A stretch of DNA of 64,000 bases from Escherichia coli 042. Lineage in GTDB: Bacteria > Pseudomonadota > Gammaproteobacteria > Enterobacterales > Enterobacteriaceae. The position numbers and the translations under genes were made by a program. Where the stretch lies: assembly GCF_000027125.1 (NCBI RefSeq), contig NC_017626.1; one strand, written 5' to 3'. The notes under the pieces are model-generated. The model worked only from the letters and a program-made list of their open reading frames with translations. It was not told the DNA's origin and did not search any database. Numbering within the stretch: the stretch's first letter is position 1; every line of letters begins with the position of its first letter. Shown in pieces: positions 21,849 to 27,056 of this stretch.

Positions 21849-23270
21849 GTAAGCGTCAACGGAGCACCGTATTGACGCTTATTTATTGGTGAGTACTACG
21901 TTCCATGGCAGGAGTTCATCAACTCGGTTGGAAGGCCATTCCGGCAGTACGCTCAGGATATGGCGCAGATACGCTTCCGGATCGATACCGTTCAGACGGC
22001 AGGTGCCGATCAGCCCGTACAACAGTGCTCCACGCTCGCCGCCGTGATCGCTGCCAAAGAACATAAAGATGGTATGACCTTTATATACTCACTATAGCAT
22101 TGGTGGGATATTCCAGAGGAGGTCATTATGCATTCGGAAAATATTGCAGCTTACATCGGGCTGGATGTACATAAAGAAACGTTGGCGGTTGCTATTGCTG
22201 CACCTGAACGGCTTGGCGAAGTTCGTTATTATGGTACGATTAACAACGAAGCCCAGGCTGTACGTCGATTATTTCAGAAATTGCAGGGACTTTACGGAAA
22301 CATTCTTTCCTGCTATGAGGCTGGCCCCTGTGGTTTTGGGCTATATCATCAACTCACAGCGATGAATATAAAATGCCAGGTTATTGCCCCTTCCCGGATA
22401 CCAAAATCACCGACAGACAGAATCAAAAATGATCATCGGGACGCAATTTCTCTTGCCAGGTTACTGCGGGCTGGTGAACTTACCCCTGTCTGGATCCCTG
22501 ACCTGACTCATGAAGCTATGCGGGATCTAATCAGAGCCCGTGCAGCAGCTAAACGAGACAGCAGAGTTGCCCGACAGCGAATTCTGAGCATGCTATTGCG
22601 AACAGACAAACGTTATGCAGGAAAGCACTGGACCGGCAAACATCGAACCTGGTTAGCCAATCAATCATTTAGTCAGCCATCTCAACAGATTGCTTTTCAA
22701 CACTATTGTCAGAGTCTGGAGCAGATTGAAGATCGCATACTTCAACTCGACCAGGAAATATCCCGCCTGTTACCTGAGTGGTCTCTGTGCAATCTGGTCT
22801 GCCAGTTACAGGCCCTTAAAGGTGTTGGTCAGCTAACCGCAATAACCCTGGTTGCTGAACTGGGTGATTTTTCACGATTTTCCAGTCCCAAACAACTCAT
22901 GGCTTTTCTGGGACTGGTTCCAGGGGAATATTCCAGTGGAAACAGCATTCGTCCCAGGGGAATAACAAAAGTTGGAAACAGCGAACTGAGACGTCTGCTT
23001 TACGAAGCCGCCTGGTCTTATCGTACACCTGCAAAAGTTGGTGCATGGCTTATATATTACCGACCGGATTCTGTAACACAATATTCCAAAGATATTGCAT
23101 GGAAAGCTCAACAACGATTGTGTTCTCGTTACCGAAGTCTGACAGCAAAAGGGAAAAAATCACAAGTAGCCATTACGGCGGTGGCTCGTGAGTTGACTGG
23201 ATTTATGTGGGATATTGCACTTGCTGCCCAATCATCATTCAGTCAGCAGAAGCAAAATTAAACCTATCGT
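21849..23270 (+). repeat. Direct repeat copy A (about 1.42 kb): IS66-family terminal segment plus 5' 1.2 kb of an IS110-family element
   Basis: Nearly identical to 23966-25387. Begins with the IS66-type end GTAAGCGTCAACGG and contains a 61-aa TnpC C-terminal fragment (21879-22064, minus strand). Confidence 0.8.
22128..23261 (+). CDS. IS110-family transposase (copy A)
   Basis: 377-aa product (MHSENIAAYIGLDVHKETLAVAIA) typical of IS110/IS1111-family DEDD transposases. Differs from copy B at 5 positions, 4 of them listed under finding 13. Confidence 0.8.
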   Translation: MHSENIAAYIGLDVHKETLAVAIAAPERLGEVRYYGTINNEAQAVRRLFQKLQGLYGNILSCYEAGPCGFGLYHQLTAMNIKCQVIAPSRIPKSPTDRIKNDHRDAISLARLLRAGELTPVWIPDLTHEAMRDLIRARAAAKRDSRVARQRILSMLLRTDKRYAGKHWTGKHRTWLANQSFSQPSQQIAFQHYCQSLEQIEDRILQLDQEISRLLPEWSLCNLVCQLQALKGVGQLTAITLVAELGDFSRFSSPKQLMAFLGLVPGEYSSGNSIRPRGITKVGNSELRRLLYEAAWSYRTPAKVGAWLIYYRPDSVTQYSKDIAWKAQQRLCSRYRSLTAKGKKSQVAITAVARELTGFMWDIALAAQSSFSQQKQN

Positions 23271-23289
23271 GGAGAACAGGGGCGAACTT

Positions 23290-23810
23290 GTAATAATTTA
23301 CTGAAGAGACAATTTTATGCTGACCGCCCAAATCAAAAGTGGGTAACAGATGTCACAGAGTTTAAGGTCGATGGCAGGAAGCTCTATTTATCACCAATCA
23401 TGGACCTGTATAATGGAGAAATAGTCTCATATAACCTTACTGAGCGCCCATTAGCATCAATGGTAAAGAGCATGCTATTAGATGCGGTAGAACAACTCAA
23501 TAAAGACGATAAGCCCTTGTTGCATAGTGATCAGGGGTGGCAATATCAGATGCCTCGTTGGCAACGTTGGTTGAGTGATAATGGCATAACACAAAGCATG
23601 TCCCGACGTGGTAACTGCTTAGATAATGCAGCAATGGAAAGCTTTTTTAGTACTTTAAAATAAGAATGTTACTACCTAAATAAATACAATAAGTTACATC
23701 ATCTAAAGCAAGATATAATTGATTACATTGAATACTACAATCACCATCGCATTAAAGAGAAACTCGATGGCATGAGTCCGGTTCAATATCGACTTAAACA
23801 TTTTTCATAG
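23290..23810 (+). pseudogene. IS3-family transposase OrfB fragment (frameshifted, internal stop)
   Basis: Translation gives DRPNQKW, LYNGEIVSY, MSRRGNCLDNAAMESFFSTLK, characteristic of an IS3-family OrfB C-terminal region; the reading frame is broken. Confidence 0.55.
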
Positions 23811-25387: not shown

Positions 25388-25487
25388 CAGTCAGACACGG
25401 AATGAGTGATCCTCGTAAAAGAATTCAGGGAAGCCAGAATGCGCTAATACCTGCACGTAGAAAGAGGCCAGCTCACTGCGTAAATCG

Positions 25488-27056
25488 TCATGGGGCTAAA
25501 ATCCCCGAATAAGAGTTTGTAAAATCCAAGATACAGTCTGACTGTTTCAGGTTCTTTAATCCGCGATATAACGAAGCTCCCGGAGCTGCGTAAGGTCTTT
25601 TTGGGCTTAATATTTGACAAAGGTCATAAGAATTTTTCTTTCCGAGACAGACTGCACGAAGCGCTCTTTCCGCTGTGTTATTGTCCGCCTCCGCCAGACC
25701 GTCATCACAGAAGTTGCACAACGCAACCCAGTGCTTCCTGATATACCGGAACGCATCTCTCAGACGGCATTTTTTCGATAACGTGTGTTCTTTCTCCTGC
25801 ATCAGCTTATACAGGGAAGTCAGTAGCGGTTTACTCTGCATTTGCCTGACCGCCAGGCGTTCAGACACCGGCAACCCGCGTATTTCGTGCTCAATGGCGT
25901 ACAGTTCGCCGATTAGTTTCAGTGCTTCTTCCGCCGTCGCGCTTTTGGTACTGATATATACATCGTGGATTTTGCGCCGCGCATGAGCCCAGCATCCTGC
26001 TTCCGTCAACGCGCCGCCTTCACGTTCGGCACTGAACAGCCGATCGTAACCTGCGAACGCATCTGCCTGCAGGATACCCCGGAAGGGACGAAGGTGTTGC
26101 TCCGGATGTTTACCCTGATGGTCCGGTGAGTAGGCGAACCAGACCGCCGGAGGTTCTGGCGAACCGGCATTTCGGTCATCCCGGACATACGTCCAGATAT
26201 ATCCTGTTTTCGCCTTCTTCCTGCCCGGTGCCAGTACTTTTACTGGTGTGTCATCAGTGTGAACCTTGCGGGTGTTCATCACATAACTGTACAGGGCATC
26301 ATTCAGCGGCGTCATTAACTGGCAGCACGCATCAACCCAGTTGGAGAGTAAGGCACGGCTCAGTTCGACACCCTGGCGGGCAAAGATTTCACTCTGACGA
26401 TACAGTGGCAGGTGTTCGCAGTATTTTCCCGTTAACACGCGGGCAAGTAACCCCGGGCCCGCGATACCACGCTCTATCGGACGGGATGGTGCCGGTGCTT
26501 CAACGATGCAGTCACATTTTGTACAGGCTTTTTTTACCCGTTCTGTGCGGATCACTTTCAGGGCGCTGCTCACCAGTTCCAGTTGTTCTGCGCTGACTTC
26601 CCCCAGATAATCCAGCTCACCGCCACACTCCGGGCAACAGCTTTCTTCAGGCTCCAGGCGGTATATTTCACGGGGGAGATGTGCCGGTAACGGACGACGA
26701 TGGCGCGACTGTCGCAACTGGCGGGGAACCAGCGGGTCATCCTCACGCCCACTGTAACGATCGCTTTCCTGCTCGCGTTGTTTCAGCAGGGCTTCAGCCT
26801 GTTCAACCTCACGACGCAGTTTTTCAGAACGGGTTCCGAACAGCATCCGGCGCAGTTTTTCTATCTGAGCCCGCAGATGCTCTATTTCCCGTTCATCTTC
26901 TTCGATCTTTTCTTCGGCACGTGCCAGTGCAGAGCGCAGGAAGGCCTCCGTCTCTTCAACCAGACTCAGTTGCTGGTCTTTCTGACGGAGGGCTTCAGCC
27001 TGCTCAGAGAGCAGCCTTTCCAGCTCAGCGATGCGAATGAGGTATTTCTGACTCAT
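25488..27056 (-). pseudogene. IS66-family transposase TnpC, 3' end replaced by read-through into the IS110 insertion
   Basis: 522-aa ORF with the IS66 TnpC coiled-coil N-terminus and zinc-finger CPECGG. Homology ends after RAVCLGKKN at about 25632. Confidence 0.8.

Follow-up and report, generated by a model that had tools for sequence, protein, structure and literature searches.

Two probably independent, site-specific ISEc45 insertions at the same tnpC codons of IS66-family elements in the Escherichia coli pic island, and a guide RNA predicted to match the site

In a window of 64,000 nucleotides from Escherichia coli 042 (contig NC_017626.1), the end of an IS66-family element followed by an IS110-family element occurs twice in the same orientation, which raises the question of whether one unit was duplicated in place or the same combination arose by separate insertions. 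The initial annotation had proposed a tandem duplication of a unit of about 1.42 kb. A self-BLAST of the window gave a direct repeat of 1416 bp (21849-23264 and 23966-25381) with 97.3% identity, 38 mismatches and no gaps; the repeat is real, and the ends formerly placed at 23270 and 25387 lay 6 bp too far out. Similarity ends abruptly on both sides, and the copies are 2117 bp apart, each starting at the same IS66 terminus. The locus is the pic island, an IS-rich virulence island adjoining pic. The elements are already catalogued: the inserted one is ISEc45, of the IS1111 group in the IS110 family, and its host at copy 2 is ISEc43, of the IS66 family. Both are named by PGAP in identical loci, and the start of the copy-2 transposase exactly matches the ISEc45 sequence in the Siddiquee supplement. 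As an object ISEc45 is ordinary, being already known, and nothing differs in the element itself. We consider it very probable that the repeat reflects two independent site-specific insertions of ISEc45 at the same codons of two different IS66 elements, for which we propose a bridge/seekRNA mechanism. The features are collected in Table 1.

Table 1. Features of the repeated region, in window positions
Feature	Position	Strand	Details
IS66-family right end, host of copy 1	21849-22067	-	terminal inverted repeat starting GTAAGCG and last 62 tnpC codons
ISEc45 copy 1	22068-23264	+	bases 1-1197 of 1447; left end GATGGTATGACC and transposase ORF intact
Copy 1 transposase ORF	22128-23261		377 aa
IS3-family orfB fragment	23265-23810	+	rve domain; replaces 3' part of copy 1
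IS66-type terminal inverted repeat remnant (...TTTACGCTTAC)	23851-23908		related copies elsewhere in the window: 27927-27954, 28419-28446, 33138-33195
ISEc43	23966-27953	-	IS66 family; 2541 bp without insert; interrupted by ISEc45
ISEc43 inverted repeats (GTAAGCG start)	at 23966; ending at 27953		GTAAGCGTCAACGG; GTAAGCGTAAAGCC (reverse complement)
ISEc43 tnpC, 3' part	23996-24184
ISEc45 copy 2	24185-25631	+	complete, 1447 bp; limits set by the empty site of O104:H4 locus L003
Left subterminal inverted repeat ATGACCTTT	24191-24199	+	6 nt from left tip; partner AAAGGTCAT
ISEc45 transposase/recombinase (copy 2)	24245-25378	+	377 aa; PF01548 (DEDD_Tnp_IS110; E 8e-16, residues 10-158) and PF02371 (Transposase_20; E 7e-24, residues 227-298)
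Predicted target-binding loop of bridge/seekRNA	25411-25467	+	stem CCUCG 25411-25415; closing GAGG 25464-25467
Predicted right target guide UAAAAGAAUU	25416-25425	+	in target-binding loop
Predicted inner hairpin	25426-25453	+	in target-binding loop
Predicted left target guide CACGUAG	25454-25460	+	in target-binding loop
Predicted donor-binding loop	25483-25515	+	AAUCGUCAU; hairpin GGGGCUAAAAUCCCC 25492-25506; GAAUAAGAG 25507-25515
TTGACA (-35 hexamer)	25614-25619	+	right end of copy 2
Right subterminal inverted repeat AAAGGTCAT	25619-25627		4 nt from right tip
ISEc43 tnpC, 5' part	25632-27056
ISEc43 tnpB	27087-27437
ISEc43 tnpA	27434-27871

The junctions of copy 2 and its empty site were observed directly. 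In O104:H4 strains (locus L003) copy 1 is present, ISEc43 is intact and the flanks are 100% identical, and at the site of copy 2 GAACACGTA is joined to ATTTTTCTT, i.e. GAAGAACACGTA and ATTTTTCTTTCC are uninterrupted where the window has 1447 bp inserted. This intact IS66-family element therefore fixes the limits of copy 2, with a boundary ambiguous by one A (24184-25630 is equivalent) and without target duplication. As noted before, RAVCLGKKN is the last stretch of the TnpC frame ahead of the break at 25632, and the C-terminal part of the frame lies beyond the element; this part comprises 62 codons where 61 had been counted, since Y476, encoded at 24182-24184, belongs to it. ISEc43 has the gene order tnpA-tnpB-tnpC and a DDE_Tnp_IS66 transposase, and its intact TnpC carries PF13007, PF13005, PF03050 and PF13817. 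An intact ISEc43 elsewhere has an 8-bp repeat (PMC6531882). Around the ISEc43 of the window, whose flanks are rearranged, an 8-bp target duplication was sought and is absent (TAATAGTC vs CCATAGAG).

Copy 1 lies in a related IS66 end that PGAP annotates as a partial 'transposase domain-containing protein'. Its junction is the variant ...GAACATAAA (codons N-F-M-F), and the 216-bp IS66 parts of the two copies differ at 9 positions. The element is cut at 23264, 3 bases past the transposase stop codon. Since the 3' non-coding region with the bridge/seekRNA region and the right end are missing, copy 1 is unable to move by itself and is a dead remnant. The IS3-family OrfB fragment reported between the copies was recovered as well, by its rve domain and by its PGAP label of IS3 family transposase pseudogene. 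The two transposases differ at four residues (I10V, R162H, T237I and S253N), which are the exchanges named in the initial annotation, although five had been counted there.

The origin of the repeat can be judged from the distribution of its alleles and the relationship of its copies. A region packed with IS fragments is hard to assemble, but an expanded or mis-joined repeat can practically be dismissed, as had been argued earlier: the 38 fixed differences serve as unique anchors, and the 7.5-kb structure is found at 100% identity in at least seven independent complete E. coli genomes, including FORC_069, NCCP15648 and NCTC9082, so it is no assembly artefact of a single genome. Small variations of the structure occur in several further E. 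coli genomes, and the locus has three other coherent alleles, namely an empty ISEc43, a recombinant single copy, and versions with extra IS. Duplication in place of one IS66::IS110 unit, followed by divergence of the copies, would account for their direct orientation, their spacing and their common IS66 starting point. This reading of the initial annotation has become very improbable, as the copies are not jointly present or absent across strains: the copy-2 site is empty in O104:H4 although copy 1 is present. The host junctions differ (CATAAA before copy 1, CACGTA before copy 2), and so do the left ends (GATGG vs GATGA). Nor are the copies each other's closest relatives; over 1197 bases, copy 1 has 4 differences from L008, an ISEc45 that lies at an unrelated locus, and 27 from copy 2. 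Among the 25 base differences between the transposase genes 21 are synonymous, which argues for divergence as functional genes and not for decay of a local duplicate, and the 2.7% divergence between the copies is far above the 0-0.1% seen between strains in the rest of the locus. Copy 1 belongs to another ISEc45 sublineage than copy 2.

Copy 2 might instead have been copied in from another ISEc43::ISEc45 by homologous recombination or gene conversion, or the composite might have arrived by IS66 transposition in trans. Such composites are common (574 genomes), the ISEc43 of the window is without the 8-bp duplication, and IS66 copies do recombine at this locus: MLI121 has one hybrid copy that resembles copy 1 in its 5' part and copy 2 in its 3' part, the crossover falling between 22637 and 22658. 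Against this, the ISEc43 flanks are 100% identical in the empty and occupied alleles, so that no conversion tract is visible, and we regard this route as unlikely. It would leave the site specificity untouched, because the specificity rests on many independent hosts and taxa. For the two independent insertions that we prefer, an insertion of copy 2 in the window lineage and a precise excision in O104:H4 fit the alleles alike, transfer by recombination from another composite being a possible variant.

The target is a conserved tnpC motif, G-(R/K)-K-N on one side of the insertion point and (W/Y/F)-(L/V/M)-F on the other, which corresponds to the boundary between residues 475 and 476 of the 537-aa ISEc43 TnpC, inside the DDE_Tnp_IS66 domain. 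ISEc45 is always oriented opposite to tnpC. In a census of E. coli records, 624 contained at least 80% of ISEc45 and 608 of these additionally contained the 216 and 300 bp of IS66 flank; about 97% of the records with a near-full ISEc45 thus have IS66 flanks, by a per-record coverage proxy and not a junction-by-junction count. The same junction was found at all five other E. coli loci sampled, in different chromosomal contexts and in hosts including ISEc22 and unnamed IS66-family members. Relatives with 52-72% protein identity split IS66 tnpC between the same two residues in at least nine elements from other taxa (Nitrosomonas, Trabulsiella, Limnoglobus, Sphingomonadales, Rhodobacteraceae, Novosphingobium, Sphingomonas, Ralstonia and an Acidobacteria genome bin). 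For the relatives in other phyla that use these codons (K-N before and W/Y/F-L/V/M after the junction) the protein identity is 56-72%. The ends of the relatives are conserved: the left one reads GATGrkATGACC and the right one, in the majority, TTGACAAAGGTCATAAGA. The insertion near the 3' end of IS66 tnpC is correct as first described, and the preferred attachment sequence once suggested to explain the repeated target is strongly supported, beyond the original proposal, because a whole clade of relatives uses it. Weighing against our reading, many near-cognate IS66 sites are unoccupied, e.g. in ISEc23, in IS682 and in an IS66 fragment near window position 28208. Two candidates for a different IS66 target at residue 357 (L035 and L037) were rejected as truncated remnants of the same clade, cut just past the target-binding loop. 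None of the papers retrieved, in a search that covered publications and not the ISfinder entry, names the tnpC codons K-N-(W/Y/F) of IS66 as the target of ISEc45; the papers on ISEc45, ISEc43 and IS110/IS1111 together with IS66 were only resistome and mobilome listings, and none of them describes the target.

ISEc45 has the characters of the IS1111 group. Both transposase domains are present, together with the motifs GLDVHK (at 11), YEAGP (63), KNDHRDA (100) and GLVPGEYSSG (262), whose residues are presumably catalytic; the GL-P----S(t)G motif of the C-terminal domain of the group has been defined previously (PMC11187229). The inverted repeats are subterminal, not terminal, and within 7-17 bp. 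Non-coding sequence comprises 60 nt of left end before the ATG and 253 nt downstream of the transposase gene. One target sequence is used, in a single orientation and without target duplication, as judged from the empty and occupied alleles and from seven E. coli junction sets. In the supplement of Durrant et al. (PMC11208160), ISEc45 is assigned to IS1111 and its bridge RNA is predicted to lie in the right end (RE). In a circular form, the TTGACA of the right end would lie 17 bp from TGaTATGAC of the left end (24187-24195) and form a putative junction promoter. The hexamer is kept in most relatives, with the variants TGGACA (L014) and TTGATG (L017). A promoter and terminator scan of the integrated ISEc45 found none, including no sigma-70-type promoter.

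For the guide RNA, loops were parsed by anchors and pairs were counted by script. The predicted layout is common to 14 elements and runs CCUCG, right target guide, hairpin, left target guide, CGAGG, and then GGGG...CCCC followed by GAAUAAGAG, which consists of the right-end terminus AUAAGA and the first G of the left end. Ten distinct arm pairs occur in the inner hairpin, and 63 of their 70 positions are paired; arms pair at 4.5 of 5 positions with their own partners vs 2.9 of 5 with arms from other elements. The left guide follows the host codon: CAGCCAG occurs with ...GCCA (W codon) at the junction, CAGGUAG with ...GGTA, CACGUAG with ...CGTA and CAUAUAG with ...TAAA. In the copy of the window all 7 positions of the left guide pair (6 Watson-Crick and 1 G-T), and 7 contiguous positions of the right guide do so. 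Guide and target match over short stretches only (7 + 7 nt), and 1-2 mismatches occur at several natural sites; L009, although a frameshifted element, has two in the left guide region. The core dinucleotide of the ISEc45 clade is A-G/A. The right guide is 5' of the left one, as reported for IS1111 seekRNAs (PMC11187229), and both complementarity and covariation are seen in silico over the 14 elements. Within the donor-binding loop, AAUCGUCAU is an uncertain candidate for the right donor guide, with about 5 pairs to the left end only.

Consensus folding with RNAalifold on MAFFT alignments gave a poor result, since a right guide of either 9 or 10 nt shifts the register. An Rfam scan of positions 21000-29000 at E<=1 found no family for the ISEc45 guide RNA, the sole match being a sub-threshold AfaR (27.8 bits vs a gathering score of 100) in an IS66 repeat remnant. 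A long-range pairing from the single-sequence fold of the 253-nt region (z = -2.6) was discarded as not conserved in relatives. GAAAGA beside CACGTA, which matches the bottom strand of the right flank, was also tried as right guide and was rejected because it is conserved spacer and closing stem (A-x-x-GAGG) in all relatives; AAGAAUU 5' of the hairpin was taken instead.

With ends and target both well conserved, a transposase protein recognising a fixed sequence would likewise yield a single site, the conserved 3' region being then only regulatory or end-binding. We find this hard to credit, as the 7-nt segment varies with the host codon variant (GCCA, GGTA, CGTA, TATA) between constant stems, and as a sister clade that shares the RNA layout, with other guide letters, is found at another sequence. 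Furthermore, the RNA is required and programmable in ISEc11, ISKpn4, ISPa11, ISEc21 and IS621 (PMC11187229, PMC11208160).

The guide-directed mechanism proposed for ISEc45 is by analogy with the IS110/IS1111 systems that were characterised by experiment in 2024: a bridge/seekRNA from the 253-nt region downstream of the transposase gene would direct the DEDD recombinase. Since CACGUAG is the top-strand sequence left of the site (CACGT plus core), this guide would pair with the bottom strand there, and AAGAAUU would pair with the top strand right of the site (A-A/G-TTCTT). The second loop, with AUAAGAG, would represent the joined right and left ends of ISEc45. Insertion would proceed without duplication and excision would restore tnpC, with a circle junction of copy 2 reading ...GGTCATAAGA followed directly by GATGATATGACC. 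That the RNA is produced, that a circle forms with a promoter at its junction, and that ISEc45 is still active is likewise presumed. Copy 2 would thus have been placed complete in ISEc43, and copy 1 in a related IS66 end where an IS3-associated rearrangement later truncated it.

On a wider scale, we think it rather likely that ISEc45 represents a widespread, old IS1111-group clade specific to IS66, with guides naturally reprogrammed within one host IS family. Its members are seen in Proteobacteria, Planctomycetota and Acidobacteria, with transposase identities as low as about 50%, and its main branch would use the tnpC codons K-N and (W/Y/F)-(L/V/M) with a 7-nt left guide retuned to the local IS66 codon variant. 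The sister branch (Belnapia, Paeniroseomonas; L020-L022) has the same RNA scaffold with the guides CAGUAAG and GACGCUU. These fit GTA-AG-CGTC at the very end of the IS66 terminal inverted repeat, where the L020-L022 elements lie. No description of such a guide-reprogramming series on one host IS family was found in the searchable literature.

For annotation, the repeat is to be read as two nested IS insertions in the virulence island beside pic and not as a duplication. Its copies are substrates for recombination, and MLI121-type strains carry a 2117-bp deletion between the two. The locus further provides a clean empty/occupied pair for ISEc45 and, together with the relatives from other phyla, a natural guide-target covariation series for IS1111-type bridge/seekRNAs. 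In practical terms the gain is modest: a single scaffold with natural 7+7-nt guide variants becomes available for programmability tests.

In comparison with known systems, the ISEc11 seekRNA and the IS621 bridge RNA have two loops, each with a left guide (top-strand sequence, pairing to the bottom strand) and a right guide (pairing to the top strand), and guides that overlap at the core dinucleotide, as predicted for ISEc45. The sequences are unrelated and the targets different, however, and a right donor guide is hard to assign in ISEc45; Durrant et al. (PMC11208160) place many donor contacts of IS1111 elements in multi-loop structures. IS1111-group elements of the IS4321 type share with ISEc45 the subterminal inverted repeats, the single orientation and the single position in another mobile element, but their target is the non-coding terminal repeat of Tn3-family transposons and not coding sequence of tnpC; in target type the sister clade L020-L022 is closer to IS4321 than ISEc45 is. 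ISEc21 is, as we presume for ISEc45, an RNA-guided IS110-family element; it targets a conserved coding motif of another IS's transposase gene without target duplication, and a circle and junction promoter have been reported for it (PMC11187229). It differs by an IS3 host, a non-coding region upstream, guides in the opposite order and no long subterminal repeats, whereas ISEc45 has an IS66 host, the region downstream, the right guide before the left and 9-bp subterminal repeats. After ISEc21 in IS3, ISEc45 would be a second example of an RNA-guided IS landing on the most conserved codons of another IS's transposase, a landing site that is multi-copy, mobile and harmless to the cell. As a separate observation, the window also contains an ISEc21-like transposase of 358 aa (33745-34821), which splits an IS3 orfB at ...HSD.

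The two copies of the IS110-type unit were aligned at nucleotide level, as the initial annotation had suggested. When compared with itself, the window shows a single long direct repeat of 1416 bp with 97.3% identity, 38 mismatches and no gaps, and the similarity stops abruptly at both ends. The layout described in the initial annotation holds: an IS110-family element (ISEc45) lies inside IS66 tnpC (ISEc43), the tnpC frame is cut after RAVCLGKKN, and an IS3-family orfB fragment separates the copies. Its repeat ends were 6 bp too long, however, the C-terminal tnpC part on the far side has 62 codons and not 61, and the transposase copies differ at four residues and not five. 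NCBI annotates the elements as "IS110-like element ISEc45" and "IS66-like element ISEc43". Copy 1 of ISEc45 ends 3 bases past its own stop codon, and is without the entire 3' region (including the guide-RNA layout) and the right end. At 23868-23908, within the IS66-type repeat remnant, Rfam matches the AfaR sRNA weakly (27.8 bits, gathering score 100, E = 0.1), most likely through chance or shared IS66-end sequence.

Features of the ISEc45/ISEc43 locus, of the rest of the window and of related elements
Feature	Position	Strand	Remark
Direct repeat, copy 1	21849-23264
Direct repeat, copy 2	23966-25381
IS66-type terminal inverted repeat	start of each repeat copy		GTAAGCGTCAACGG...
End of IS66 tnpC	after the terminal inverted repeat in each copy	minus	last 62 codons
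IS110-family transposase	after the tnpC end in each copy	plus	377 aa
ISEc45 copy 1	22068-23264		truncated
IS3-family orfB fragment	23265-23810		between copies; rve domain
IS66-type repeat remnant	23851-23908		between copies
ISEc45 copy 2	24185-25631		complete, 1447 bp
IS110-type element, further part	right of direct repeat copy 2		250 bp
tnpC frame, resumed	from 25632		...RAVCLGKKN, then tnpB and tnpA
ISEc43	23966-27953		2541 bp minus insert
Second IS66-family tnpC 3' fragment	27923-28446	plus	abuts ISEc43
Pic autotransporter gene	28840-32958		adjoins locus
IS3-family orfB, downstream part	33420-33689	minus
ISEc21-like IS110-family transposase	33745-34821	minus	358 aa, nearly identical to ISEc21; splits IS3-family orfB
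IS3-family orfB, upstream part	35040-35633	minus	ends ...GGVMFHSD
Sister-clade element, L020	2387-3898
Sister-clade element, L021	2386-3897
Sister-clade element, L022	about 350-1801

The 7.5 kb around the repeat is 100% identical to the chromosomes of seven complete E. coli genomes, including FORC_069, FORC_043, FORC_029, NCCP15648 and NCTC9082. Because the arrangement recurs in independent assemblies and 38 differences are fixed between the copies, an assembly artefact is excluded, as the initial annotation had held.

In O104:H4 strains, copy 1 and the IS3 fragment are present at this locus, but ISEc43 is uninterrupted. The empty site reads ...GCTACCGAAGAACACGTA^ATTTTTCTTTCCGAGACAG, where '^' means the insertion point, and the occupied site in the window reads ...GAAGAACACGTA-GATGATATGACC...GGTCATAAGA-ATTTTTCTTTCC, with the element running from the second to the third segment. 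This comparison with an uninterrupted IS66-family element, also suggested earlier, gave the exact ends of copy 2, with a boundary ambiguity of one base (A) and no target duplication. The insertion splits TnpC (537 residues) between N475 and Y476, within the DDE_Tnp_IS66 domain (195-485) and shortly ahead of the IS66 C-terminal element (493-529). At the ends of ISEc43 itself the 8-bp target duplication typical of IS66 is absent (TAATAGTC vs CCATAGAG), and its flanks have therefore been rearranged. ISEc43 is nested among other IS66 ends (23851-23908, 27927-27954, 28419-28446 and 33138-33195), which together with the missing duplication points to recombination among IS66 copies in the island.

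A tandem duplication of the IS66-end/IS110 unit, as first proposed, is rejected on the empty site, the junction variants, the relationships of the copies and the synonymous differences. The copy-2 site is empty in O104:H4 although copy 1 is present, with flanks of 100% identity. The host junctions are GAACATAAA^GATGG for copy 1 and GAACACGTA^GATGA for copy 2; the junction codons differ (N-F-M-F vs N-Y-V-F), and the two IS66 hosts are therefore different variants. Over 1197 bp, copy 1 has 27 differences to copy 2 but only 4 to the ISEc45 of strain B1W1 at an unrelated locus (L008), while copy 2 has 2 differences to another E. coli locus (L006). Within the transposase gene 21 of the 25 differences between the copies are synonymous, the pattern of two functional lineages and not of a decaying local copy. 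Taken together, this is evidence for two independent insertions by two ISEc45 sublineages.

At the pic locus, strain MLI121 carries just one ISEc45 (3850-5514 of its locus, corresponding to 21849-25631 of the window). This copy is a mosaic, the first 22 variable positions being copy-1-like and the following ones copy-2-like except for two later copy-1-like positions, and it arose when the two copies recombined and 2117 bp were deleted. Over the first 1197 bp it is one base away from the ISEc45 that strain E500002 has in ISEc22, and the recombinant type may therefore have moved by transposition.

The same junction is used elsewhere. Among 5426 complete E. coli genomes, 624 records carry at least 80% of ISEc45, and 608 carry it together with 216 + 300 bp of IS66 flank. 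Five further E. coli loci in differing chromosomal contexts all have the same junctions, their IS66 hosts being annotated as ISEc22 or as unnamed IS66-family members. A scan with the ISEc45 protein against one genome per bacterial species gave 28 loci. In loci with a transposase 52-72% identical the left end GATG(A/G)(T/G)ATGACC is conserved, and the right end TTGACAAAGGTCATAAGA is kept in most of them. Where flanks were available, IS66 tnpC is split at the same residue and in the same relative orientation in nine cases: Nitrosomonas, Trabulsiella, Limnoglobus, Novosphingobium, Sphingomonas, Ralstonia and genome bins of Sphingomonadales, Rhodobacteraceae (L018) and Acidobacteria. The preferred attachment sequence suggested in the initial annotation is thereby confirmed. 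The ancestral target is GAAGAGCCA^GTTCTT, the reverse complement of codons K-N-W-L-F. Two further left flanks, translating to W-L-F-S-D... (L013) and W-M-F-I-G-S... (L016), look like IS66 too.

Three other loci from the comparison deserve mention. A Planctomycetota element (L017, 1006-2469) has perfect guide matches at CAGCCA^GTTCTT and flanks translating to ...GIAPKN^WLTPFG; tblastn detected no IS66 similarity in these flanks, and the host gene is an IS66 that has diverged strongly or else an unrelated one with K-N-W-L codons by chance. A contig labelled Collinsella sp. genome bin (JAIJJM010000012.1) carries the E. coli copy-1 ISEc45/IS3-fragment junction with 99% protein identity; it probably comes from E. 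coli and reached the Collinsella metagenome-assembled genome through mis-binning. Around position 998 of L028, the right end ...GGTCATAAGA is directly followed by GTGGGGATGACC, which is like the left end GATGGGATGACC of L016; a related element may be present there as a head-to-tail tandem or as a circle junction that was captured.

ISEc45 has the features that mark the IS1111 group: the domains PF01548 and PF02371 (Pfam), the GL-P----SG motif, 9-bp subterminal inverted repeats (24191-24199 and 25619-25627), a left end of 60 nt and a region of 253 nt downstream of the transposase gene. Durrant et al. (PMC11208160) class it as IS1111 and place its predicted bridge RNA in the right end, and in the IS110/IS1111 family the RNA has been shown experimentally to be required and to specify the target (PMC11187229, PMC11208160). 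The downstream region of the ISEc45 clade has a conserved order. It opens with CCUCG as one side of a stem and continues with 9-10 nt that end in AAGAAUU and a hairpin whose sequence varies; then come the 7-mer CA....G and A-x-x-GAGG, which closes the stem, and after about 25 nt a GGGG...CCCC hairpin and GAAUAAGAG. Compensatory change supports the variable hairpin, which occurs with 10 different arm pairs in which 63 of 70 positions are paired (4.5/5 positions with own arms vs 2.9/5 with arms from other elements).

The 7-mer equals the top-strand sequence immediately left of the insertion point plus one base, and would therefore pair with the bottom strand. It varies with the host site: CAGCCAG at ...(C/G)AGCCA^G in six elements (L016, at CATCCA, has one mismatch), CAGGUAG at ...GAGGTA^A in L018, CACGUAG at ...CACGTA^A, CATGTA^A and CAGGTA^G in E. 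coli elements, and CAUAUAG at ...CATAAA^G in L008. For copy 2 and the ISEc43 site 7/7 positions match, the last as a G-T pair. AAGAAUU is the complement of top-strand sequence that begins with the final left-flank base and runs into the right flank (A-A/G-T-T-C/T-T-T). If G-T and G-U are allowed, 11 of 12 elements have at least 7 consecutive pairs here; in the Trabulsiella exception position one is unpaired and 7 consecutive pairs follow. The two segments would thus be arranged as right and left target guides overlapping at the core A-G/A, in the same order as in IS1111 seekRNAs, where the top-strand-pairing segment comes first (PMC11187229). ISEc45 would find the IS66 tnpC site through this predicted RNA. 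GAAUAAGAG includes AUAAGA^G, in which the right tip of ISEc45 runs straight into base one of its left tip, as expected of a left donor guide. A doubtful candidate for the right donor guide is AAUCGUCAU, ahead of the GGGG hairpin, which pairs with left-end ATGAT or ATGAC over only ~5 bases. The second tnpC fragment next to ISEc43 has an unoccupied, near-cognate site near 28208 (CAGGAA^GTTTTT, 2 mismatches to the left guide).

Integrated ISEc45 contains no recognisable sigma-70-type promoter, against 2.8 expected by chance. A circle, as formed by relatives, would place TTGACA (25614-25619) 17 bp upstream of TGaTATGAC (24187-24195) as a putative junction promoter; such promoters are reported for ISEc11 and ISEc21 (PMC11187229).

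A sister clade (Belnapia, Paeniroseomonas; L020-L022) with ~50% transposase identity keeps the RNA scaffold and has CAGUAAG and GACGCUU at the guide positions. Its junctions are ...GTA-AG on the left and, after the right end, CGGC or CGTCC. In L022 the right flank CGTCCGGTGACGCGG... leads into the 3' end of IS66 tnpC, with the stop codon 25 nt off, the same distance as in ISEc43 when counted past the first five bases (GTAAG) of the terminal repeat. From these junctions and this distance, the sister clade appears to insert at the tip of the terminal repeat of IS66 and not in tnpC, verified in one of the three cases (L022).

As an object the locus is ordinary: ISEc45 and ISEc43 are already catalogued and named, and their class of mechanism is known. 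The literature searched gave no paper with IS66 tnpC as target of ISEc45 or relatives; this targeting may be on record already in ISfinder or in the per-element target logos of Siddiquee et al. The guide-target model, in silico but consistent, would extend to a broad IS66-associated clade; together with the exact junctions and the evidence that two sublineages inserted independently, it is what this analysis adds. The classical IS1111 case of life in another mobile element is that of IS4321 and IS5075, whose target is the terminal repeats of Tn21-type transposons. The ISEc21-in-IS3 situation is also represented in the window (33420-35633), which thus holds two different RNA-guided IS-in-IS cases. 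Upstream of the ISEc45/ISEc43 locus there are further direct repeats, 15586-15921 vs 19191-19526 (336 bp, 96% identity) and 16819-16893 vs 19520-19594 (75 bp, 93% identity), close to a VasL-domain gene (19659-20813) and type VI secretion remnants, where PGAP annotates IS3 and other transposase fragments.
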